Positions 7,579-46,334 of a DNA stretch of 64,000 bases are shown one piece after another. Below the pieces are notes generated by a model. The model was not told the DNA's origin. It worked only from the letters and a program-made list of their open reading frames with translations, and did not search any database. The translations under genes were made by a program, and so were the position numbers. This stretch comes from an uncultured Enterobacteriaceae bacterium. Its GTDB lineage: Bacteria; Pseudomonadota; Gammaproteobacteria; Pseudomonadales; Pseudohongiellaceae. Numbering within the stretch: position 1 is the stretch's first letter; each line of letters starts with the position of its first letter. The stretch lies in assembly GCA_964606735.1 (NCBI GenBank), contig CAZSHI010000007.1, forward strand, positions 13,630-77,629, written 5' to 3'.

Positions 7579-9261
7579 ATGTTTGCGAGCAAGAGGCAAA
7601 TTGGCCTTGCCCTGATAATTATTTTTGCCTTTTCGTCACTGGCCTGGTTTTTCCAGATTCGTAGCGGGACTGATGAGTATCACTGGTACAGCATTCTGCC
7701 GCCAGTTTTTGCTGTCGCCTGTGCGATTGCAACCCGACATCTGTTGTTGAGCCTCAGTGCTGGAGTTATCAGTGGTTCACTCTTGATCAATGTGCCCTCT
7801 GCGCCATTGCAGTTTGAATCTTGGTCAGACAGTGTTATCACCCTGCTATTACAGCTCTGGAATGTGATAAGTGACCCTTTCAATCTTTCGGTACTGGCCT
7901 TCATCATACTCATGCTGATCATGATCTCTGTCGTGATTCTGTCTGGTGGCTTGCTGGCTATCGTGTCCTGGCTGGAACGTTTTGCACAGGGACCGCGTTC
8001 AACCCAGTTTGTCACAAGCCTGATGGGTTTTCTGGTTTTTATTGATGACTATGCCAATGTGATGATTGTTGGATCGTCCATGCGGCCGATCAGTGATGCC
8101 ATGAAAATAAGCCGGGAAAAGCTGGCTTTTCTGGTTGATGCTACCAGTGCGCCGGTAGCCGGTATCGCCCTGATGTCAACCTGGATTGGCTATGAAGTCG
8201 GCATCTTTGCTGAGGTCAGTACTTCTCTGGGATTCAACCGCGATGCCTATTCCATGTTTCTGGATGCTCTGAGCTTTCGGTTTTACTGCATCTTTATGAT
8301 CCTGTTTATTCTGATAAACGTGTGGTCAGGCCGTGAGTTTGGCAGCATGTTAAAGGCTGAACGCCGCAGCAGGACAGGCGCCATTGTCGCCGAGGATGCC
8401 GTACTGCCGACTAAAATTGAAAATGAAGTGAAACCTGATGAGCAGGCTACAATCAGGGCATCAACGGCGCTGCTTCCCATTGGCGTTTTATTTTTAATTC
8501 TGTTTGCAGGTCTCTGGCTGGATGGTGGCGGACTTGCTTTGTTGTCGGAGTCCATGGGAGCTCTCCTGAGTTTCACCGCCTGGCGCAATGTCATTTCTGC
8601 CTCTGAGAATAATGTTCAGGTGCTGATTGTAGCCGGAGCCTTCTCCCTGCTTACGGCGCTTATCTGCACTGTGTTGCTGGCCAGGCTTTCGTTTGAGCGC
8701 ATTCTGCCGGCAGTCAAAAAAGGTGCCAGGTCTTCTTTCTACCCCTGGGTAATCCTGATATTGGCCTGGTCGCTGGGGGGTATCTGCGAGCAAATTCAAA
8801 CGGGGCCATTTCTGGTGGCTGTTACTGGTGAGGCGATCCCTGCCTTTATCTACCCGCTGATCGTGTTCTTGCTGAGTGCGGCCGCTGCACTGGCAACCGG
8901 AACATCCTGGGGCACCATGGCCATTTTTATTCCCATCACCTCACAGCTGGCTTTTCAACTGGATGGAGGGAGTTATGGGCTGATTACCATGATGAGTCTT
9001 GCGGCGGTACTCGATGGAGCCATTTTCGGGGATCACTGTTCCCCGATATCCGATACGACCATTATGAGTTCGATCTCAACATCCTGTGACCACCTGCATC
9101 ACGTCAGAACGCAGTTTCCCTATGCAACACTGGTTGCCTGCTGCGCCATGGGACTGGGTTATTTGCCGGCAGTAGCAGGACTGGGATTGAGTGCTTCGAT
9201 AGCCCTGGCAGTAGCCGTCTTTATGGGTTTTTTGAAAATCTTTGCAAAGAAGGTGGATTGA
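7579..9261 (+). CDS. NhaC-family Na+/H+ antiporter-like membrane transporter.
   Basis: 560 aa and polytopic. The segment FIDDYANVMIVGSSMRPISD resembles NhaC-type (COG1757-like) carriers. Substrate not determinable. Confidence 0.65.
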   Translation: MFASKRQIGLALIIIFAFSSLAWFFQIRSGTDEYHWYSILPPVFAVACAIATRHLLLSLSAGVISGSLLINVPSAPLQFESWSDSVITLLLQLWNVISDPFNLSVLAFIILMLIMISVVILSGGLLAIVSWLERFAQGPRSTQFVTSLMGFLVFIDDYANVMIVGSSMRPISDAMKISREKLAFLVDATSAPVAGIALMSTWIGYEVGIFAEVSTSLGFNRDAYSMFLDALSFRFYCIFMILFILINVWSGREFGSMLKAERRSRTGAIVAEDAVLPTKIENEVKPDEQATIRASTALLPIGVLFLILFAGLWLDGGGLALLSESMGALLSFTAWRNVISASENNVQVLIVAGAFSLLTALICTVLLARLSFERILPAVKKGARSSFYPWVILILAWSLGGICEQIQTGPFLVAVTGEAIPAFIYPLIVFLLSAAAALATGTSWGTMAIFIPITSQLAFQLDGGSYGLITMMSLAAVLDGAIFGDHCSPISDTTIMSSISTSCDHLHHVRTQFPYATLVACCAMGLGYLPAVAGLGLSASIALAVAVFMGFLKIFAKKVD

Positions 9262-9546: not shown

Positions 9547-10410
9547 CTAAAAATTACTCAGTTCTCTGTGACGAACCTGAATATTACTAATTGTTTGCGA
9601 GAAATGCTTCTTAAGTTTTTCAGACAGAAAGACGGAGCGGTGTTGGCCACCGGTACACCCCAGTGCCACGGTAATGTAACTGCGATTATTCTGTTCGAAA
9701 CAGGGAATCCATGTTTCCAGAAAGTCTTTGATATGATTGAACATTTTAATAACCTCCGGGTGGGATTCCAGGTAATCCACCACTTCCTGGTTAAGCCCGG
9801 TGAGGCCACGCAGACTGCTGACCCAATAGGGATTGGGCAGACAGCGCACATCAAAAACCATGTCAGCATCAATCGGTATTCCGTGTTTGAAGCCAAAAGA
9901 CTGAAACTGTAGAGCCAGCTTGCCGGCTTTGTGCTCAGCAACCCGCTCACGCACGATATCACGCAGGTCGTGCAGGGTAAGACTGCTGGTATCAATGGTC
10001 AGGCTGGCTAGGTCGGCAATCGGCAGCAACAGCTCTTTTTCGAGCTTGATGGCTTCAAGCAAGCCCAGTTCAGAATTACTCAGAGGGTGCTTGCGGCGGG
10101 TTTCGCTGAAGCGTTTGAGCAGGGTGTCGGTATCGGCATCCAGGTAAATGATTTGTACCTCGATATCGGTGGCAATGAGCCGTTCATGGATGAACTGAAA
10201 CTGGCTCAGGTCGCTGGACAGGTTTCTGGCATCAATACTTACAGCGACTTTATTCAGCTGCTGTTTGCTTTCTTCAGCGATACGTTCGGCTAGTGAAGCC
10301 AGCAGGCTAGCTGGCATGTTATCCACGCAGTAGTAGCCCAGGTCTTCCAGTACATGCAGGCAGGTACTTTTACCTGAGCCGGAACGACCACTGATAATGA
10401 TGAGTTTCAT
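9547..10410 (-). CDS. rapZ: RNase adapter protein RapZ (YhbJ).
   Basis: N-terminal P-loop GRSGSGKS. C-terminal CTGGQHRSV motif. Operon context. Confidence 0.93.
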   Translation of the reverse strand: MKLIIISGRSGSGKSTCLHVLEDLGYYCVDNMPASLLASLAERIAEESKQQLNKVAVSIDARNLSSDLSQFQFIHERLIATDIEVQIIYLDADTDTLLKRFSETRRKHPLSNSELGLLEAIKLEKELLLPIADLASLTIDTSSLTLHDLRDIVRERVAEHKAGKLALQFQSFGFKHGIPIDADMVFDVRCLPNPYWVSSLRGLTGLNQEVVDYLESHPEVIKMFNHIKDFLETWIPCFEQNNRSYITVALGCTGGQHRSVFLSEKLKKHFSQTISNIQVRHRELSNF

Positions 10411-10481
10411 ATGAGCTCTTGCTTGGTTGAAACTGGAAATAAACGATTATAGGGGGATTTCGTCAGGACGAAAGGCCAATT

Positions 10482-10943
10482 TCAGGCCTGAACGTCCGGG
10501 GTTCGCATCGCGGCGGTATACAGGTCGCTGTCAGTCTGACTTTTTCGCAGGCCTTCACAGTAGCTCGGGTCCTTGAATAACTCTGCCAGCGTACGCAGAA
10601 CCTCGAGATGTCCCTCAATGGTGTTTTCCGGCACCAGGAGGAAAAACAACAGATCAACCGGCTTCTGGTCAATGGCATCAAAATCGATAGGGGAAGCCAG
10701 CTTTATCAGGCAGCCGACTGTTTTCTTGCATTTGGGAACACGGCAATGGGGGATGGCGATACCATTGCCGAGCCCGGTACTGCCCAGCTGCTCGCGGGCT
10801 ATCAGAGCCTCATAGACTTCGTCAGCATTGACATCTACTTTGCTGGCGATCAGTTCGGCACTGGTTTCCAGGAGTCGTTTCTTGCTCACTCCCTCGACAT
10901 TACAAAACGTAAGCTCGGGGCTGATGATAGTTTCTAGCAGCAT
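10482..10943 (-). CDS. ptsN: Nitrogen PTS enzyme IIA (PtsN).
   Basis: 153 aa. IIA-Ntr fold signature GNGIAIPHCRV with the phospho-His. Operon context. Confidence 0.9.
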   Translation of the reverse strand: MLLETIISPELTFCNVEGVSKKRLLETSAELIASKVDVNADEVYEALIAREQLGSTGLGNGIAIPHCRVPKCKKTVGCLIKLASPIDFDAIDQKPVDLLFFLLVPENTIEGHLEVLRTLAELFKDPSYCEGLRKSQTDSDLYTAAMRTPDVQA

Positions 10944-10994
10944 CTTGACTTGGTTTACTTGTTAATTCTGTCTACAGGCCGCTTTTTGACTGGC

Positions 10995-12479
10995 CTAGAG
11001 TAGGCGTTTCCTTTCATTTGAAGGTGAGATGGACAGGGATTCCCTGTATTTCGCAATGGTACGGCGCGCAATATTAATACCTTGTTCCCCCAAAAGTGAA
11101 GTAATTTTACTATCACTGAGTGGTTTTTGCGGGTTTTCAGCAGCGACAACCTTCTTGATCAGGGCCCGGATTGCCGTCGAGGAGCACTCGCCGCCTTCCT
11201 GAGTGCTGACATGACTGGAGAAAAAATATTTCAATTCAAAGATGCCACGAGGGGTGTGCATGAATTTCTGGGTGGTAACTCGTGAGATGGTTGATTCATG
11301 CATGCCGACTGCTTCAGCAATATCGTGCAGGACCAGTGGTTTCATGGCTTCGTCGCCATAATCCAGAAAACCGCGCTGGTGCTCGACAATTTTGCTGGCA
11401 ACCTTCATCAGCGTTTCATTTCTGCTTTGCAGGCTTTTGATAAACCAGCGAGCTTCCTGCAGGTTGTCTTTGAGGAAGTTTGAATCAGCCCTAGAAACCT
11501 GTCGATTGACCAGCGCTGCGTATTCAGGATTAACCCGGATAGATGGTGTACTGTCAGGATTCAGTTCCACTTTCCAGCGCCCATTCTGTTTGGATACAAA
11601 TACATCTGGAATGACATAGGCAGCATCGGAAGGGGTGATTTCAGAGCCGGGCTTCGGGTTAAGTGAAAGTATGATTTGCAAGGCATCTTTCAGCTCAGGC
11701 TCTTTGATTTTCAGACGCTTCATGATGTAGGCGTAATCATGAGTGGCCAGTTGTGACAAAAATTCATTAACTATCCTGCGGGCGGTCGGGTAGCTGGCAC
11801 AGTGCTGGTCGTAATGATCCAGTTGCAGGTTCAGGCATTCCTTCAGGTCTCGGTAACCCACGCCAACCGGGTCAAACTGCTGGATACGATGCAGAACCGC
11901 GAGAACCTCTTCCTCGTCGATATCCAGCTCGCGAATCAGCCCGGCGTGGATGGATTCGATGCTGGACGTTAATTGGCCATTGGGATCAATCGCATCGATG
12001 ATGGCAGTGGCAATAAGACGGTCACTGTCTGACATCGGTGTGAGATTGAGCTGCCAGTTAAGATGGTCCTGCAGGCTTTCAGCTGTGCTGTTGCGAGATT
12101 CGAAATCACTGTCCTCAAAGTCTTGAGCGGCATGACTGCTGGGCGCGGTGTTGATATAGACATCTTCCCAGGAACTGTCGACGGAAAGCTCTTCGGGAAT
12201 GTTGTTATCTTCCCAGTCTGAAGCGGACAGGTCCTGAACGCTTTCCTCTACCTCGTCACGGGGGGATGTTAGCTTATCGGCATAATCTTCTGTGTCGGAA
12301 CTTTCCCTGTCATCCTCATTCTGGGACTCCTCCAGTTCCAGCATGGGATTACTTTCCAGAGCTTCCTGGATTTCCTGCTGCAGATCCAGAGTCGACAGTT
12401 GCAGGAGGCGGATTGCCTGCTGCAATTGTGGGGTCATGGTAAGTTGCTGACCCAGTTTGAGTTGTAGCGATAATTTCAT
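10995..12479 (-). CDS. rpoN: RNA polymerase sigma-54 factor.
   Basis: Gln/Leu-rich region I ([18 protein letters not shown]), an acidic region II, and the RpoN box [10 protein letters not shown]. Confidence 0.96.
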
Positions 12480-37474: not shown

Positions 37475-37609
37475 GATATTCTTCACACAAACCAACAAAG
37501 CGCATCAACAGGAGGCCACCCAGCATTCATCTAAACAACTAGCCAAGTACACAGAGAGTACAGTTACCTTTTCTCAACTCAAACTTTTTTAGCATATTGG
37601 AGTGTGAGC

Positions 37610-38422
37610 ATGGCCAGAAGATCGCACAAACGTTCGATCCAATATTATGATGACCTAGACAACCCTTACTACACGCACAAAAGCAACAAACGTAAAGACA
37701 AACAAAGGCGCCGAAAAGGCCCAGAAGAACCCAGCAATATCGTCGAGCTTAACAGTCTGCTCAATACAGGCTACAAGCCTCCGCAGCAAAAACTCCTGTT
37801 AGAACCCCGCAATCCTGCACAAAAACGCTATATCAATGCCATCAAGAATAATTGTCTGACCTTTGGTCTTGGGCCTGCCGGTACCGGCAAATCCTATTGT
37901 GCAGGGGCTCTGGCTGCCCAGGCTCTGGAATCCGGTCGAATTGAGCGAATCATCTTTACCCGTCCTGCAGTTGAAGCCGGTGAACAGCTCGGCTTTTTGC
38001 CAGGCAAACTGGAAGATAAATTTTCCGTTTACATCGATGCCTTCCGGGATATTCTGAATGAACGTTTGGGCAAGGGTGTTGTCGAGTATTGTCTGCGGCA
38101 CGGTAGAATCGTCGGAGCTCCACTGGCATTCATGCGAGGTAAAACCTTCAATGCATCTACCTTTGTGATTCTGGATGAAGCACAAAATGTCACCCCTGCG
38201 CAGATGAAAATGTTTTTAACGCGGATTGGTGAAGACTGCAAAGTAGTGGTGAACGGCGATACGCATCAGAGCGATATACGTGGCCCAAATGGTCTGGATG
38301 ATGCGGTTAACAGATTGCGTGGTCTGCCGGGAGTGCATGTGCATACCTTCAGGAAGGAAGATTCGGTGCGCAGTGGTCTGGTACGGCATGTGCTGGATCG
38401 TTACGAGAGCATTCATGGCTAG
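37610..38422 (+). CDS. PhoH-family ATPase with a Lys/Arg-rich N-terminal extension.
   Basis: Walker A GPAGTGKSY, RPAVEAGEQLGFLPG and ILDEAQN. The ATG at 37610, behind GGAG, is preferred over the GTG at 37604. Confidence 0.88.
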   Translation: MARRSHKRSIQYYDDLDNPYYTHKSNKRKDKQRRRKGPEEPSNIVELNSLLNTGYKPPQQKLLLEPRNPAQKRYINAIKNNCLTFGLGPAGTGKSYCAGALAAQALESGRIERIIFTRPAVEAGEQLGFLPGKLEDKFSVYIDAFRDILNERLGKGVVEYCLRHGRIVGAPLAFMRGKTFNASTFVILDEAQNVTPAQMKMFLTRIGEDCKVVVNGDTHQSDIRGPNGLDDAVNRLRGLPGVHVHTFRKEDSVRSGLVRHVLDRYESIHG

Positions 38423-40805: not shown

Positions 40806-41663
40806 ATGTCAGCAGCCAGTCTATACATTGTCGCGACACCGATTGGCAATCTGCAGGATATTAGCTTGCGAGCCATCGAGGTACTCAGACAGGTCGACCT
40901 GATAGCCGCTGAAGATACTCGCCACAGTGCTAAGCTGTTGAAACATTACGGAATAACAAGCCCCTTGATGGCACTGCATGAACACAATGAACAGGCACGT
41001 ATCGAACATTGCCTGCAAAACCTCAAAGAGGGCAGGTCGCTCGCGCTTATCACGGATGCCGGCACACCGCTGATATCTGATCCCGGTTTCCAACTGGTCC
41101 GTGCCGCCAGACAGGCCGGCCTGACGGTCAGCCCGGTTCCCGGCCCCAGTGCCATCACCGCTGCCTTGTCATGCGCCGGCTTGCCATCAGACAGTTTTAT
41201 ATTCGCGGGTTTTTTACCTGCCAAACAGGCTGGTCGTCTGAAAAAACTGGAAAGCTTTTCAGGTGAAATCAGAACGATGATTTTTTATGAAGCTCCGCAT
41301 CGTATCGTGGATACGTTACATGACATGCAAACGGTGTTTTCCCCGCAACGCCGAGCTGTGCTTGCCAGGGAAATGACCAAAGCGCACGAGACATTTCTTG
41401 CTGATACACTTGAAAACTTGCTGGAGAGACTTTCACAGGATGCCAATCAGCAACGCGGAGAAATGGTGCTTCTGTTGGAAGGTGATTCTGAAGAAAAATC
41501 TGCACCGCTGAAGGAAGTCACAGTGCAGCCAGATTGGCTGATGAAAATTTTACTGGAAGAACTGCCACTGAAACAGGCCAGTGCTCTGGCGGCAAAAATC
41601 AGCGGCCTTAAAAAGAACAGCCTTTACCAGATAGGCTTACAATTAAAAGAAAGTAATGATTGA
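40806..41663 (+). CDS. rsmI: 16S rRNA (cytidine1402-2'-O)-methyltransferase RsmI.
   Basis: LYIVATPIGNLQDIS, AAEDTRHS and ITDAGTPLISDPG. The ATG at 40806 is preferred, but the track ORF start at 40764 is possible. Confidence 0.92.
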   Translation: MSAASLYIVATPIGNLQDISLRAIEVLRQVDLIAAEDTRHSAKLLKHYGITSPLMALHEHNEQARIEHCLQNLKEGRSLALITDAGTPLISDPGFQLVRAARQAGLTVSPVPGPSAITAALSCAGLPSDSFIFAGFLPAKQAGRLKKLESFSGEIRTMIFYEAPHRIVDTLHDMQTVFSPQRRAVLAREMTKAHETFLADTLENLLERLSQDANQQRGEMVLLLEGDSEEKSAPLKEVTVQPDWLMKILLEELPLKQASALAAKISGLKKNSLYQIGLQLKESND

Positions 41664-42147
41664 ATTTTTCGCTTGGCTGGAAGCCACTTCGCTTAGTATC
41701 TGGCTGCGGGAGTCCATGATAGGGTTTCCTTTGAGCCTGGTCATGCATGCACTCGGTATGGCCTTTTTGGTGGGTGTGCATTTTCTGCTGGATTTACGGA
41801 TTCTGGGGATAGCTGGCAATGTACCGCTGGCTCCGCTACAACGATTTTTCCCGCTTATGTGGTTCAGTTTTTTTCTTGCCCTGTTTTCCGGCCTACTGCT
41901 CTTGCTGGCATACCCAGCCAAAGGGCTAACCAACCCGGTTTTTTATAGCAAGTTGCTACTGGTAGCGGCAGCGCTGTTAGTGGGTACAGTACTGGCCCGT
42001 CGGACTGTCAATGAGCCTGCTGTCATCAGCAGTAATACCAGGTTGATGGCGTTGCTGTCACTGTGTCTCTGGGCGACAGTGATTACGCTAGGTCGTCTAC
42101 TGGCATACACCTATAAGGTATTATCAAGCTTCGAGCTGACATTTTGA
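41656..42147 (+). CDS. Uncharacterised 4-TM inner-membrane protein, paralogue A.
   Basis: ATG overlaps the rsmI stop (ATGATTGA). Four hydrophobic helices. Shares H-x-x-G, DLR(I/M)LG, NP-x-F-x-x-K and VIT-x-GRL with the next ORF. Confidence 0.7.
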   Translation: MIEFFAWLEATSLSIWLRESMIGFPLSLVMHALGMAFLVGVHFLLDLRILGIAGNVPLAPLQRFFPLMWFSFFLALFSGLLLLLAYPAKGLTNPVFYSKLLLVAAALLVGTVLARRTVNEPAVISSNTRLMALLSLCLWATVITLGRLLAYTYKVLSSFELTF

Positions 42148-42148
42148 T

Positions 42149-42658
42149 ATGGAAGAAGCACTCCTCAGTTTTTCCCAGCAGTCCGGTATCTACGCCATCA
42201 TGAACAGCCGTTGGGGCTGGCCGATTGTGGAGTCACTGCATTTTTTTGGGCTCTCACTGTTAATCGGAACCGTTGGCCTGTTTGATCTGCGTATGCTGGG
42301 CTTTGTCCGGCAAATTCCTTTGGCGGCGATGCACAAGCTGATACCTTTTGGAGTAGCCGGATATCTGCTCAATGTGCTTACCGGCATTATGTTTTTTACC
42401 AGTGTTCCGGATCAGTATCTCTATAACCCGGCGTTTCAGACTAAAATGCTTTTTATGATAGGAGCTGGGATGAACATGCTGGTGTTCTACCGCTTTGCTT
42501 ATCAGGAAATCAAGCTAACAGGGGCCGGGCAGGATCTGAGGACCAATACCAAAGTGTTTGCTGCTGTTTCGCTACTGTGCTGGATGGGTGTGATTACGGC
42601 GGGGCGCTTGATTACTTTTTTTAGGCCGCCGGCGCATTACTGGTGTTTCTGGTGCTGA
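42149..42658 (+). CDS. Uncharacterised 4-TM inner-membrane protein, paralogue B.
   Basis: Starts 2 nt after the stop of paralogue A (TGATATG). Alignable with paralogue A over most of its length. Ends in ...HYWCFWC. Confidence 0.7.
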   Translation: MEEALLSFSQQSGIYAIMNSRWGWPIVESLHFFGLSLLIGTVGLFDLRMLGFVRQIPLAAMHKLIPFGVAGYLLNVLTGIMFFTSVPDQYLYNPAFQTKMLFMIGAGMNMLVFYRFAYQEIKLTGAGQDLRTNTKVFAAVSLLCWMGVITAGRLITFFRPPAHYWCFWC

Positions 42659-42964
42659 GCTGCTGTGATCGGTAATGCTTCGTTAAAAGGCTGAATTCAA
42701 TCAGTCACTTACTATTTTGTAAGCTCTTTCTTGACTTTCGCCTTGCCTTCCCATCACTTGCGACGCTCAGTTTTATGCCGAGCTATTGTACGTGCATTTT
42801 TTTACTGCACGAATCAGGTGATGGCTCTTAACTGACACAGAAACTTGAGGTCGTACAGCTTGCCCATAGTATAAAGCGATTGCTATGGCTCAATGTGTGC
42901 ATATTGCCGATAGTTTGGATAAGCTAGGCAAGGAATATTCGAGAACTGATCTGGAGACATCTCA

Positions 42965-43354
42965 GTGAAAAAAAATTCACATGTAGCGGCTTTTATTCTA
43001 ATCATGCTGGGCAGCTACTCTTCTGTGCTCAGAGCCCATCATTCAACGGCCATGTTTGATTCCGATAATCCCATTGAGTTGGCAGGAACAATCGTCGAGT
43101 GGCAATACACAAACCCCCATACCTTCATTATCCTGAAGGTTGATGAGGATGGAGATGAAGTGGAATGGGCGCTGGAAGGGCGAAGTACCAGCGCCATTTA
43201 TCGCCTGGGTTGGACCCCGGAAAGCCTTCAGCCAGGCGATGAAATAATGGTTACCGTGCGACCTTTACACAGTGGAGCACCGGGTGGAAATTACAGCAAT
43301 ATTCGCTGGAAGGACGGTACCGAAATTGACCCCTATGCTCCAAGAACACAATAA
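42965..43354 (+). CDS. Small Sec-secreted protein with predicted mature N-terminus HHS (probably the family catalogued as DUF6152), copy 1.
   Basis: Signal peptide KKNSHVAAFILIMLGSYSSVLRA|HHS. NPHTF motif. About 105-aa mature domain, probably beta-rich. GTG start behind GGAGA. Confidence 0.75.
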   Translation: MKKNSHVAAFILIMLGSYSSVLRAHHSTAMFDSDNPIELAGTIVEWQYTNPHTFIILKVDEDGDEVEWALEGRSTSAIYRLGWTPESLQPGDEIMVTVRPLHSGAPGGNYSNIRWKDGTEIDPYAPRTQ

Positions 43355-43364
43355 CCCTCTGGTA

Positions 43365-44240
43365 ATGAAGATGAAAGGTATAAAAATCTGGCGCAAGGTG
43401 TTTTCCCTGACAGTTGTGCTTCTTGGCCTGTGCCTGGTGACGGCATGCGCGCCGCAGAATGATCAAGTTAATGCAGCAGGGAATACAGCCTCTGCGAACA
43501 CCATGAGCTATCCGGACTGGCGCGGGCAATGGCAACGCGCCCCTGGCAGCCTGAACTGGCCTTCCGAGGGCTATGAGCAGGTCGGTCCTCCACCTCTTAC
43601 GGAAGAGTACATGGCGATCTGGCAGGGCTATACCGCTCTGCAGGAAGCGGGCATCCCTGCTGGTGATCCCCCATCAACCTGCCTGCCTCAGGGGATGCCG
43701 CGAATTATGAAAATGACTTACCCCATGGAAATCATTGTTACCCCTGAAATCACTTATATCTATGCCGAGTGGAACAGCCAGTTTCGGCGGATATACACTG
43801 ATGGTAGGGATTGGCCATCATATATACTGCCGGCATTTAATGGCTACTCGATTGGGCAATGGCATGATGAGAATAACGATGGAGTCTACGATATGCTGGC
43901 CATTGAAACTCGTGCCATGAAAGGGCCACGCTCCTATGATTCCCGTGCCGTTCCTTTGCATGAGAATAATGAGACAGTGGTTCTGGAAGAAATACGCCTG
44001 AGCGATGACATGACTATGGTAAATACCATCACCACCATCGATGATGCATTAACGGGCCCCTGGACTGTTGATCAGGTTTATCTGCGTGAACTGGACAATA
44101 TTGTCTGGGCTGAATATGCCTGCGCAGAAAATAATCTGCATTTAAAACTTGGGGATGAATGGTACTTTATTAACCAGGATGGCACGCTTTCCCCGACTCG
44201 GGAAGGACAGCCAGGTTTGGTACCAGAAGTACAGGATTAG
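43365..44240 (+). CDS. Uncharacterised lipoprotein (~290 aa).
   Basis: The internal ATG at 43365 gives MKMKGIKIWRKVFSLTVVLLGLCLVTAC, a lipobox signal. The track ORF start at 43272 would overlap the preceding gene by 83 nt. Confidence 0.7.
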   Translation: MKMKGIKIWRKVFSLTVVLLGLCLVTACAPQNDQVNAAGNTASANTMSYPDWRGQWQRAPGSLNWPSEGYEQVGPPPLTEEYMAIWQGYTALQEAGIPAGDPPSTCLPQGMPRIMKMTYPMEIIVTPEITYIYAEWNSQFRRIYTDGRDWPSYILPAFNGYSIGQWHDENNDGVYDMLAIETRAMKGPRSYDSRAVPLHENNETVVLEEIRLSDDMTMVNTITTIDDALTGPWTVDQVYLRELDNIVWAEYACAENNLHLKLGDEWYFINQDGTLSPTREGQPGLVPEVQD

Positions 44241-44415
44241 CAATAAGCATCCAGAAAAGATTTATGAGCGCTAACTATCCAAATTGGAAATCAACTAGCT
44301 AGCATTAAATTGGTATTTTCAGATTCGCCTACAGCTACAAGGAAAATGTGCTATTAATAAATCAGAAGCCCGTGAAGAAGATAAGAATTCGAAAAAAATA
44401 AAAGCTGCTTTTGAG

Positions 44416-45081
44416 TTGATAGTATTTGTTGCTTTAGTACTGGGTTCAAAGGAATTCATGGATCCTTATTTTGGCGCCTATGCAGGGCCTGCATCATTAA
44501 TAATAACTCTTGTAATTTTAACCATATATATCCGTCAAGCGGGGCAATCCTGGAGCTCAATGGGCTTGCGTAATTTGCCTGGCCTAAATGCAAAATTTCT
44601 GGTCTTACCCCAAGCATTTGCAATATTCGTAACTGTATTAGCGATTATCGTCATTCTCACAAGAGCATTAGAAGTTGTAGGGTTTACTTTTATGTCAGAA
44701 CCCATTGAGGGTGAAACAGAGCGCTGGGGAGACATCCAAGGAAATTTTCAGTTGTATCTGGTATTAATCGCTTTGTCATGGGTGAGTGCCGGTTTTGGTG
44801 AGGAGATGTTTTTTCGAGGTTTCCTTGTTACTCGATTGAAAACTGTTTTTAGTGATATTTATTTTTCGTCAACTGTATCAGTTTTACTTGCGGCTCTAAT
44901 ATTTGGTTACGTGCACATCTATTACCAGGGGTTGACGGGCTTTGTAAATGCAGGAGTAATCGGGATAATTTTCGGGACTTATTTTCTGCTATATAGAAAC
45001 AACCTTTGGCCGCTTGTAATAGCTCACGGCTTTATCAATTCCCTAGGATTTACATCTGAGTTCATGGGTTGGGGTCTATAA
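44416..45081 (+). CDS. CPBP-family (CAAX/Abi) intramembrane glutamic endopeptidase.
   Basis: Motifs EEMFFRG, FGYVH and HGFINS in hydrophobic helices. TTG start. Visibly AT-richer than the flanking DNA. Confidence 0.8.
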   Translation: MIVFVALVLGSKEFMDPYFGAYAGPASLIITLVILTIYIRQAGQSWSSMGLRNLPGLNAKFLVLPQAFAIFVTVLAIIVILTRALEVVGFTFMSEPIEGETERWGDIQGNFQLYLVLIALSWVSAGFGEEMFFRGFLVTRLKTVFSDIYFSSTVSVLLAALIFGYVHIYYQGLTGFVNAGVIGIIFGTYFLLYRNNLWPLVIAHGFINSLGFTSEFMGWGL

Positions 45082-45280
45082 CAATACTATAGCCAGAAAT
45101 GTCGGTTATTAATCGATACTGTGAGCATGGGTCCAGAAGCTTACAGGCTATTAGTGATTAAATTGCTCGAAAAAGAGTGATGAATATTAGTCATTCTGCG
45201 ATAGGTGTGGAAATGACAAGCTCAGTAATGTCTGTGCATAACTATCACTGAATCGATTTGTCTGAAGTGAAAATTATCAG

Positions 45281-45340
45281 ATCAAGCTTGCACTTTATTT
45301 CCATCATTAGTTAAGAATTTGTTAAGAATTCAAGCTTGAT
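45281..45340. repeat. Composite repeat: inverted ATCAAGCTTG / CAAGCTTGAT arms enclosing a tandem GTTAAGAATT-T-GTTAAGAATT.
   Basis: Read directly. Arms are at 45281-45290 and 45331-45340. The tandem copies are at 45310-45319 and 45321-45330. The element ends 35 nt upstream of the 45376 ATG. Confidence 0.8.
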
Positions 45341-45375
45341 AATAGGCTAACCAAACGTCATAAAGGAGATTGGTT

Positions 45376-45780
45376 ATGCAACCCAGCAAACGAAATTCAT
45401 TCACAGCCATCATGTTGTCAATGGGCATTAGTGTATTTGCCTCTGGAGCAGCCATTGCGCATCATTCATTCCCAGCTACCTATATTATGGATGACACGGA
45501 AACGATTGAGGGTGTCATGGTTCAGTTCCTGTTTCGTAACCCGCACTCATTTGTACATGTGATGGTGACGGATGAAGAGATAGGCGAAAATCATCGGTAC
45601 GCGGTTGAGTGGGGAGGTGCCAGTGCGCTGGCCGGCTCGGTTGACCGCTCCAGCCTGAAGCCTGGTGACAGGGTTCGCATCAGTGGTCAACCTGGACGAA
45701 ACCCCGATGATCATCGCCTACGTATGCAGAGTCTCGAAGTTGTGGATGGTGACTTTGTATGGAATGGCGACTTCGAGTAA
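45376..45780 (+). CDS. Small Sec-secreted protein with predicted mature N-terminus HHS (DUF6152-like), copy 2.
   Basis: AAGGAG (45363-45368) then ATG. Signal MQPSKRNSFTAIMLSMGISVFASGAAIA|HHS. NPHSF, VEW and LKPGD are shared with copy 1. Confidence 0.75.
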   Translation: MQPSKRNSFTAIMLSMGISVFASGAAIAHHSFPATYIMDDTETIEGVMVQFLFRNPHSFVHVMVTDEEIGENHRYAVEWGGASALAGSVDRSSLKPGDRVRISGQPGRNPDDHRLRMQSLEVVDGDFVWNGDFE

Positions 45781-45838: not shown

Positions 45839-45998
45839 TAGATGCTTTAAACTTTCCTGATACCAGCTATTTAGCAGTATAGTAAACCTTCTTTACTGGG
45901 TGAGTTTGGGTCTCTTCTTGGTTGCCGTCAGCCCAGTTCTCCACTTGATCAATAATTTAAAGCTGGTTTGAATACACGAGCATAATTATAATTGCGCT

Positions 45999-46334
45999 GG
46001 TGAGTTGGCCAGACAATCGCTGTTTCTAACAGAGGAAAGTCCGGGCTCCACAGAGCGAGGTGCCAGGTAACCCCTGGGGGGCGTGAGCCTACGGAAAGTG
46101 CAGCAGAAAAGATACCGCCGGTTTACCGGTAAGGGTGAAATGGTGCGGTAAGAGCGCACCGCATGGGTGGCAACATTCCATGGCATGGTAAACCCCACCT
46201 GGAGCAAGGCCAAATAGGAACCTTTAGTGTTGCTCGCACTGGGTTCGGGTAGGCTGCAAGAGGGTCATGGCGACATGGCTCCCAGATGAATGATTGTCCA
46301 CGACAGAACCCGGCTTACAGGCCAACTCACTTTT
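45999..46334 (+). ncRNA. rnpB: RNase P RNA, bacterial type A.
   Basis: Near-identity to E. coli M1 conserved cores: GAGGAAAGTCCGGGCTCCA (46032-46050), GGTAAGGGTGAAA, GCGGTAAGAGCGCACCG, AGCAAGGCCAAATAGG and ACAGAACCCGGCTTA. The P1 helix pairs 46000-46010 with 46320-46330. TATAAT lies at 45987-45992. Confidence 0.95.

Follow-up and report, generated by a model that had tools for sequence, protein, structure and literature searches.

Gene content and history of the rsmI-rnpB interval

Between rsmI and the RNase P RNA gene rnpB, the window (the whole 64-kb stretch of DNA analysed here) contains six open reading frames (ORFs) on the plus strand, named A to F, which fill positions 41656 to 45780. 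They lie at the coordinates given in a first-pass annotation, which was made from the DNA letters without database searches and had proposed that they form one module for the handling of a periplasmic metal (possibly copper) or redox cofactor. None of the six has an assigned function: Pfam assigned domains of unknown function or nothing, except for the CPBP family in the case of E. The features are as follows.

40806-41663 (alternative start 40764), plus strand: rsmI, left boundary (ORF list; TP_methylase and RsmI_C domains in the identical contig L001)
41656-42147, plus strand: A, 163 aa, A-type DUF6644 protein (Pfam and a profile of B homologues)
42149-42658, plus strand: B, 169 aa, B-type DUF6644 protein (Pfam, 31.2 bits)
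42965-43354, plus strand: C, 129 aa, secreted DUF6152 protein (Pfam, 89 bits)
43335-44240 (alternative start 43365), plus strand: D, 301 aa, lipoprotein of an unnamed family (lipobox Cys38)
44458-45081, plus strand: E, 207 aa, CPBP (Rce1-like) protease (Pfam, 65.3 bits)
45376-45780, plus strand: F, 134 aa, second secreted DUF6152 protein (Pfam, 58.8 bits)
46001-46333, plus strand: rnpB, right boundary, RNase P RNA class A (Rfam RF00010, 329 bits)
From 46662: mraZ, downstream of rnpB

BLASTP, lipobox and Pfam evidence agree with the earlier description of the block as two paralogous pairs (A/B and C/F), a lipoprotein (D) and a CPBP protease (E), and the localisation of all six products in the envelope proved correct. 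Neither the ORF list nor Pfam revealed a regulator, ATPase, integrase or transposase within the interval, as had been claimed. Many homologues were found for each of the six proteins, and the ORFs are therefore real genes; blocks identical to that of the window occur on marine metagenome contigs, which makes the source an uncultured marine gammaproteobacterium. In the loci fetched for comparison, many of which derive from metagenome-assembled genomes, genes were called by ORF and hidden Markov model (HMM) matches only. The start of A overlaps the stop of rsmI by 8 nt (41656-41663) and B begins 1 nt past A; because of this overlap, A and B are probably co-transcribed and translationally coupled with rsmI, a housekeeping rRNA methyltransferase gene. 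The genes C and D overlap or directly adjoin each other, and gaps are found upstream of C (306 nt), E (217 nt) and F (288 nt). Operon boundaries were drawn from gene spacing only, since promoter and terminator scans of the interval gave signals no better than chance. The sole RNA detected in an Rfam scan was rnpB.

A comparison of the interval in close relatives did not recover the full A-F block and revealed a graded series instead. In the loci L096, L097 and L100-L106, with B proteins 73-78% identical to that of the window, the order is rsmI-A-B-(rnpB)-mraZ with no further genes. In L098 (GCA_038131775.1; C 84% identical), rsmI is followed by A-B-C-D, a major facilitator superfamily (MFS) transporter gene and mraZ, without E and F. 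In L018 (UBA5109; C 87% identical), an orthologue of F (E-value 2e-78) is located immediately upstream of C-D elsewhere on the chromosome, in the neighbourhood of a LysR gene and a second pair of DUF6152 and D-like genes. Because the relatives hold only A-B or A-B-C-D-MFS, F precedes C-D elsewhere and E is compositionally foreign, the interval is very probably a stack of separately inherited envelope modules at one variable site, and the proposal of a single six-gene module does not hold. For this marine gammaproteobacterial lineage, A-B are the ancestral residents of the rsmI-rnpB interval, C-D (with F) arrived later beside A-B in a sub-lineage, and F is an extra DUF6152 paralogue. A tidy-looking operon of uncharacterised genes can be a mosaic, and guilt-by-association is better drawn from conserved pairs.

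Some further details of these relatives deserve mention. The nearest sequenced relative is L098. Its MFS/sugar-transporter gene (521 aa, 10347-11912) occupies the position of E-F, and the A gene of the same locus (7714-8201) appears as two overlapping HMM matches, which points to a frameshift or an assembly error. A DegP-like protease gene lies upstream of F-C-D in L018 and L007.

Gene E exceeds the cut-off of Pfam PF02517 (Rce1-like/CPBP, 22.4 bits), and its translation contains all three catalytic motifs EExxxR, FxxxH and HxxxN (GEEMFFR, FGYVH and HGFIN). While the full Pfam match and the complete motifs are shared with CPBP/Rce1-like proteases, no bacteriocin or CTERM sorting partner lies beside E, and it is unlinked to the other five genes in any other genome. 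No homologue was found in 160 related loci or in the relatives at the same junction. The gene has a guanine-plus-cytosine (GC) content of 0.405, and of 0.361 at third codon positions, versus about 0.50 for its neighbours; the lowest-GC 600-nt segment of the 64 kb falls in E. Since E together with both flanking spacers (44241-45369, GC 0.34-0.40) constitutes the lowest-GC stretch of the window, E is a recent, strain-specific horizontal insertion, compositionally foreign and outside the system proposed below. Transfer of the whole block as a mobile island was rejected: there is no mobility gene, a repeat scan found no flanking repeats around the block, and the GC content deviates in E only.

The DUF6152-D cassette and the DUF6644 pair

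C and F are paralogues (29% identity, E-value 5e-11 in BLASTP), and both exceed the Pfam gathering threshold of DUF6152 (27 bits); NCBIfam yielded no match for either. The mature N-terminus of C consists of His25-His26-Ser27, and the protein further carries N50-P51-H52 and E71; F likewise shows A|HHS, NPH and a conserved Glu. Cleavage before the first His was placed according to the signal-peptide pattern; of 101 homologues, 87 carry A|HHS, with residue 25 as the median position. In a set of 112 non-identical DUF6152 domains, which takes in fusions and distant paralogues, the first His, the second His and the His of the xPH motif are each found in 112/112, the Pro in 111/112 and the Glu in 109/112. 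The N-terminal His to which attention had been drawn in the first-pass annotation is thus not incidental. An N-terminal His unmasked by signal-peptide cleavage is a hallmark of histidine-brace copper sites (PMC10952591). From these sequence patterns, we consider the chances evenly balanced that C is a metalloprotein using its N-terminal His; copper specifically as its metal is a possible, more tentative assignment. One homologue of C is named 'Copper-binding protein' in UniRef, an unverified name.

The AlphaFold2 model of C (pLDDT 89, and approximately 96 in the N-terminal segment) is a five-strand oligonucleotide/oligosaccharide-binding (OB) barrel. Foldseek matched it to the anticodon-binding domains of LysRS (LysRS-N), SSB, PriB and CcmE, with E-values of about 1e-3 and template modelling (TM) scores of about 0.45. 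We know of no histidine-brace family on a fold other than the beta-sandwich/Ig-like ones. If such a site were indeed carried by the OB fold of C, with its invariant His-His N-terminus, histidine-brace-type metal centres would gain a new scaffold; the motif is of wide interest for copper trafficking and oxidative catalysis. With the histidine-brace proteins (the lytic polysaccharide monooxygenases (LPMOs) AA9/AA10, X325/Bim1, PmoF and CopC), C and F share secretion, an invariant His as mature residue 1 and a further invariant His; they differ in the OB barrel, the second consecutive His and the conserved Glu, and their copper binding is putative (PMC10952591). C also resembles CusF/SilF in being a small periplasmic five-strand OB-type barrel proposed to bind metal. 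However, the His/Met/Met and Trp ligands of CusF are absent in C, CusF is outside the top 50 fold matches, and no cusCBA-type partners are present.

The signal peptide of D ends in the lipobox V-T-A-C38, in agreement with the lipoprotein pattern [LVI][ASTVI][GAS]C. Its homologues carry I-S-A-C, L-S-A-C or V-A-G-C, and the one in L009 has a type I signal peptide instead. Neither Pfam nor NCBIfam gave a match for D, and NCBIfam also gave none for D', a distant paralogue within the D superfamily, or for the fusion proteins described below. A word-index search retrieved 2429 homologues, and the superfamily comprises 4492 representatives of 50%-identity clusters at E<=1e-3; proteins of the D family measure about 280 aa. 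The AlphaFold2 model (pLDDT 72) shows a helical N-terminal part followed by an antiparallel barrel, for which Foldseek returned CRABP-II/FABP as the best match (E-value 5e-5; TM 0.56-0.61 target-normalised and about 0.3 query-normalised for CRABP-II), followed by nitrophorins and lipocalins. Among the invariant features of D are Cys116, Cys263, His209 and two loops, one rich in Met (120-132) and one reading DxNxDGxxD (178-186). The Met-rich loop as a general Cu(I) site was downgraded as a candidate, the Met not being conserved in the wider superfamily. The second loop, D-x-N-x-D-G-x-x-D (43866-43892), follows the EF-hand-like calcium-binding pattern DxDxDG; only the D family proper carries this insertion, which neither D' nor the fusion proteins contain.

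The association of C with D was examined in 80 DUF6152 loci, obtained by a degenerate-pattern scan with one genome per species and with D scored by HMM envelope coordinates. These loci span Gamma- and Alphaproteobacteria, Acidobacteriota (Terriglobia, Solibacteraceae) and Gemmatimonadota, and none of them lies between rsmI and mraZ. In 65/80, a gene of the D family starts less than 700 bp downstream of DUF6152 on the same strand, and four of the other loci are cut off before such a gene could be seen; D is 63-75% identical across unrelated contexts. Moreover, DUF6152 and D are fused in single ORFs (L029 860-2032; L034 719-1861 and 7684-8760) in which a signal peptide and a DUF6152 domain with A|HHS are joined to a D-like domain. 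As such fusions link the two in one polypeptide, the Rosetta-stone argument points to C and D acting as a unit. The fusion ORFs encode about 340-400 aa, with a C-terminal domain of about 200 aa that is D-like or unassigned. Further DUF6152 fusion ORFs were observed at L031 12992-14074, L053 13750-14784, L054 6122-7291, L056 12532-13725 and L027 5842-6867. At L018 10505-12011, the second DUF6152 gene is followed by a gene for a 354-aa protein made of CarboxypepD_reg and a D'-like domain; the D superfamily therefore also occurs with additional N-terminal domains.

Together, C and D make up a two-gene cassette that is widespread and self-contained. When 148 and 136 dereplicated neighbours of C-D were scanned with Pfam, no conserved third partner emerged, and the families were scattered (Lactamase_B 6, TonB Plug 4, DUF155 4). 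The pairs are multiplied beside varied catabolic genes: a single locus can contain as many as four D genes, and three to four DUF6152 genes. DUF6152 and the unnamed D family constitute a large cassette, spread over four phyla and abundant marine clades, for which we found no publication, no Pfam model for D and no solved structure. Our literature searches returned no paper mentioning DUF6152 or DUF6644, and no significant PDB match by sequence was obtained for C, D or A/B, with single sequences or with profiles.

A and B are likewise paralogues (30% identity, E-value 1e-20 in BLASTP). B exceeds the Pfam gathering threshold of DUF6644 (27 bits), and A alone remains below it (15.7 bits, E-value 0.017) but matches the profile of B homologues, of which there are 792, with an E-value of 5e-20. 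The DUF6644 profile retrieved 80 metagenome loci; wherever there is room, an A-type gene is located directly upstream of the B-type one, with two exceptions, and the same tandem order is seen in L012-L015. A and B are an obligate tandem pair of DUF6644 four-helix inner-membrane proteins. Each contains four hydrophobic segments, and the counts of Lys plus Arg are 2.7 and 1.6 in loops 1 and 3, and 0.5 and 0.2 in the N-terminus and loop 2. By the positive-inside rule, both termini and loop 2 are predicted in the periplasm. The alignment shows as invariant in B the residues H31 in transmembrane helix 1, P87, K99, W145 and G152-R153; all invariant residues of A/B and the B-specific C-terminal motif are on the predicted periplasmic side. 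This motif, W-C-[FLI]-W-C, ends the B-type proteins, is strictly conserved and includes a CxxC predicted as periplasmic (W-C-F-W-C in B, 42644-42658); the A-type partners lack it. The conserved His earlier pointed out in the membrane partner is real: it is invariant in transmembrane helix 1 of both A and B. A reading of the C-terminal C-F-W-C of B as a CaaX box cut by E was rejected, E being absent from every other A-B locus, and is further ruled out by the many B homologues with an additional residue past the motif.

Members of the A type match positions 3-99 of the 105 positions of the CopD profile with E-values of 0.003-0.015, the best at 18.4 bits (E-value 0.003) and below the cut-off of 32.1 bits; the A of the window reaches 10.9 bits (E-value 0.63). 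Eleven of 40 members match DUF2214 and one matches UPF0093/HemJ, all sub-threshold. The consistent register of the CopD, DUF2214 and UPF0093 matches suggests a distant superfamily relation only. No paper was found linking CopD, DUF2214, HemJ and DUF2269.

The first-pass annotation had compared the block with CopC/CopD-type copper handling. Similar to CopC/CopD (CopCD of P. syringae, YobA/YebZ of E. coli) and YcnI/YcnJ, C/F present an N-terminal His unmasked by cleavage, adjoined by a polytopic partner, and A/B give weak CopD profile matches in register, so this part of the comparison stands; with YcnI/YcnJ, a copper acquisition system of B. subtilis, a plausible hand-off between two extracytoplasmic partners is shared as well. 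In contrast to CopC and DUF1775 proteins, C/F are OB barrels and not Ig-like or cupredoxin-like. No Pfam CopC match was obtained for C/F, and hhalign of the DUF6152 profile against E. coli YobA gave a probability of 0.3, that is no similarity, with a sensitivity limited by the single-sequence target. CopD membership of A/B is not supported by the scores, by the number of helices (a heterodimeric pair of four-helix proteins versus one protein of about eight), by the comparison with YebZ or by the neighbourhood, which has no CopC gene. Moreover, no copper regulator or copper gene is near A-F, and the lipoprotein D has no counterpart in CopC/CopD. The resemblance is functional at best, and CopC membership is refuted by fold and profile. 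The proposed system would combine an N-terminal-His periplasmic protein and a CopD-superfamily membrane partner from non-homologous parts, together with an unnamed lipoprotein family. A further likeness is that to YceI/cytochrome b561 (yceJ-yceI) and HemJ, in which a four-helix protein with a conserved His lies beside a periplasmic lipocalin-like barrel; with HemJ-type haem b proteins, A/B share the weak UPF0093 match and recurrent c-type cytochromes and SURF1 nearby. Unlike in cytochrome b561/YceI, there is a single invariant His per A/B subunit, no sequence relation is detectable, and haem is putative.

Genomic linkage of the two modules

The co-occurrence of A/B and C/D homologues across genomes, which the first-pass annotation had suggested examining, is found at the family level in distant genomes. 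DUF6644 is located within 8 kb of DUF6152-D in 5/80 loci (L065, L066, L069, L072 and L081, all alphaproteobacterial) and in at least three arrangements. These five loci are well above chance, because at most about 0.25 DUF6644 pairs are expected per approximately 1 Mb of random flanking sequence; this estimate is rough, and independence is lacking for some of the loci. L072 and L065 both read A-B-cytochrome c' family protein-C-D-D. The cytochrome between the modules matches Cytochrom_C_2 above the gathering score (E-values 3e-12 and 6e-13), and homologues of it are also found in L069, L081 and L062. Viewed in full, these clusters (L072 5643-10721; L065 3100-10100) comprise the DUF6644 pair, a class II cytochrome c, DUF6152 and between two and four D genes in tandem; L072 additionally encodes an HbpS-like protein downstream and an 821-aa CxxCH-containing protein upstream.

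A second type of linkage involves D'. About 28 of the 80 metagenome A-B loci share a cluster in which D', on the divergent strand, and in some cases an aldo-keto reductase gene precede A-B, followed by SURF1, a 480-aa protein and two paralogous proteins of about 310 aa. SURF1 is a haem a insertion factor, and its paralogue here, outside any cox operon and beside DUF6644, was unexpected. The cluster is exemplified by L168 (6529-13131) and was also observed in L122, L138, L144, L146, L152, L153, L158, L159, L162, L166, L167, L169, L174 and L175, all marine. The 480-aa protein (L168 9647-11089) consists of an N-terminal CxxCH haem c domain and a large domain whose motifs FHHM, HLH and HLHAPGERM recall the CuH/CuM ligands of copper monooxygenases of the PHM/DBH type; searches of Pfam and the PDB recognise its cytochrome c part only.

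The A/B and C/D superfamilies are genomically linked at the family level in at least three separate lineages, with c-type cytochromes or SURF1 beside or between them. Whether this linkage reflects functional coupling of A/B and C/D appears to us an evenly divided question. The recurring c-type cytochromes and SURF1 are no stronger an indication of copper trafficking than of redox or cofactor chemistry. DUF6644 pairs with SURF1 and c-type cytochromes offer a testable entry to an unstudied CopD/HemJ-like branch, which may bear on cofactor insertion or periplasmic electron transfer.

A possible metal or redox system and its alternatives

The two modules, A-B and C-D, look like an undescribed periplasmic metal or redox system, a view held with low confidence. 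Signal-peptide cleavage would expose the invariant His-His N-terminus on C and F, and His-His, the His of xPH and the Glu may form a histidine-brace-like mononuclear site, its metal most probably being copper. C would dock on D, whose barrel would supply a ligand pocket. As the membrane partner, the A/B heterodimer would present its conserved His, Lys, Arg and CxxC to the periplasm and feed the periplasmic pair either with electrons, by a putative haem between the two histidines of transmembrane helix 1, or with the metal itself. In the former case the electrons would go on through periplasmic cytochrome c, and in the latter A/B would act as a CopD/CtaG-like copper conduit. Redox supply is slightly favoured over copper trafficking because a cytochrome c' is encoded between A-B and C-D, SURF1 and a cytochrome c protein are encoded downstream of A-B, the HemJ-like match is present albeit weak, C-D is multiplied beside catabolic genes and the context is free of metal regulation. 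Copper trafficking draws on the weak CopD similarity, the adjacency of SURF1 and the precedent of CopD-domain proteins that act, as does Surf1, in the biogenesis of aa3 oxidase (PMC9145763). Taken as a whole, the mosaic history combined with this metal or redox mechanism is our best explanation, and we advance it tentatively.

By analogy, C-D, A/B and a periplasmic c-type cytochrome might even constitute an unrecognised periplasmic copper oxidoreductase or oxygenase system, which we regard as distinctly unlikely. Histidine-brace-type copper would then sit on the OB fold of C, a hydrophobic substrate in the calycin pocket of D, and electrons would come from A/B, a small heterodimer in the membrane that would carry haem b and belong to the CopD/HemJ superfamily. 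An analogue are cytochrome b561-DOMON proteins, which reduce LPMOs. If true, substrate diversification would explain why C-D has multiplied next to catabolic genes in Alphaproteobacteria from soil and in marine Gammaproteobacteria.

Several observations weigh against the proposed metal or redox system. The CopD scores of A/B are below threshold, and hhalign of the DUF6644 profile against E. coli YebZ gave a probability of 0.2 and hence no similarity, again with a single-sequence target limiting sensitivity. The model of D has no more than moderate confidence (pLDDT 72), the TM scores of its calycin matches are about 0.3 when normalised to the query, and the Met residues of its loop are not conserved in fusions and distant paralogues. 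Since 75/80 C-D loci lack A/B and A/B mostly occur without C-D, any coupling of the two modules is facultative. Their co-location in the window could reflect an insertion hotspot, as MFS and CPBP genes have landed there too. Furthermore, no enrichment of copper- or metal-homeostasis genes or metal regulators was detected near either module among the 25 most frequent Pfam families in each of three neighbour sets (about 430 proteins in total), and the copper-handling context suggested in the first-pass annotation was not recovered.

Four alternatives to the proposed system were weighed. In one, which we consider fairly unlikely, there is no metal site and C-D carries or captures a hydrophobic small molecule such as a lipid, an isoprenoid/quinone, a tetrapyrrole or an organic substrate; His-His would serve in ligand binding or catalysis, and A/B would be haem- or quinone-linked, like YceI with cytochrome b561. 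The resemblance of D to CRABP-II/FABP, nitrophorins and lipocalins, the haem chaperone CcmE among the fold matches of C and the weak HemJ match of A/B agree with this reading, as do the neighbouring cytochrome c', HbpS-like protein and SURF1 and the expansion of paralogues beside esterases, metallo-beta-lactamase-fold hydrolases, monooxygenases and TonB receptors. However, invariance of His-His, of a third His and of a Glu is what characterises a metal site and not a hydrophobic pocket, and the fold matches are weak (query-normalised TM 0.3-0.45).

Supply of copper for the biogenesis of a cuproenzyme or haem-copper oxidase, with A/B as conduit, C/F as Cu(II) chaperones and D as membrane tether, also seems unlikely to us. 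It is suggested by the invariant N-terminal His of C/F, by SURF1 directly downstream of A-B in about 28/80 loci and by two precedents: the aa3 oxidase receives copper through CopC and the CopD domain of CtiP, loss of CtiP resembling that of Surf1 (PMC9145763), and YcnI and YcnJ exchange Cu(II) (PMC12362106). Nonetheless, a housekeeping chaperone would not usually be multiplied beside varied catabolic genes as C-D is, the vicinity lacks cox, sco, PCuAC and P-type ATPase genes, and the calycin pocket of D is left unexplained.

A lack of any functional connection between the modules, which would then be neighbours by accident because the rsmI-rnpB junction is a hotspot for insertions, is quite unlikely in our opinion. 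The stepwise content of the junction (A-B; then C-D and MFS; then C-D, E and F) and the many loci in which either module occurs without the other argue for such an accident. In contrast, the five loci with both modules within 8 kb exceed the expectation given above and differ in arrangement, the same cytochrome c' gene lies between the modules in two of them, and a D-superfamily paralogue adjoins A-B in about 28/80 further loci.

A single co-evolved six-gene CopC/CopD-type copper operon, with C/F as chaperones, A/B as importer and D and E as accessory proteins, is very improbable: the invariant N-terminal His of C/F, the weak CopD-like matches of A/B and the envelope location of every product speak for it, but the relatives hold A-B or A-B-C-D-MFS only at the same site, E is foreign and accompanies the other genes nowhere else, C has the OB fold and no profile similarity to the CopC homologue YobA, the CopD scores are 11-18 bits against a 32-bit cut-off, and no copper genes appear in the neighbour sets.

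Two minor observations concern the surroundings of the block. A 75-aa ORF on the minus strand (45986-46213), antisense to rnpB, has counterparts called as genes in other loci (e.g. L004 and L098) and is almost certainly spurious. The gene order lpoA-yraN-diaA-dolP, said to match the Pseudomonas-type backbone exactly, does so largely; a phoH-like ATPase gene (37604-38422) is located between diaA (SIS) and yraN, as it also is in the relatives L096 and L098.

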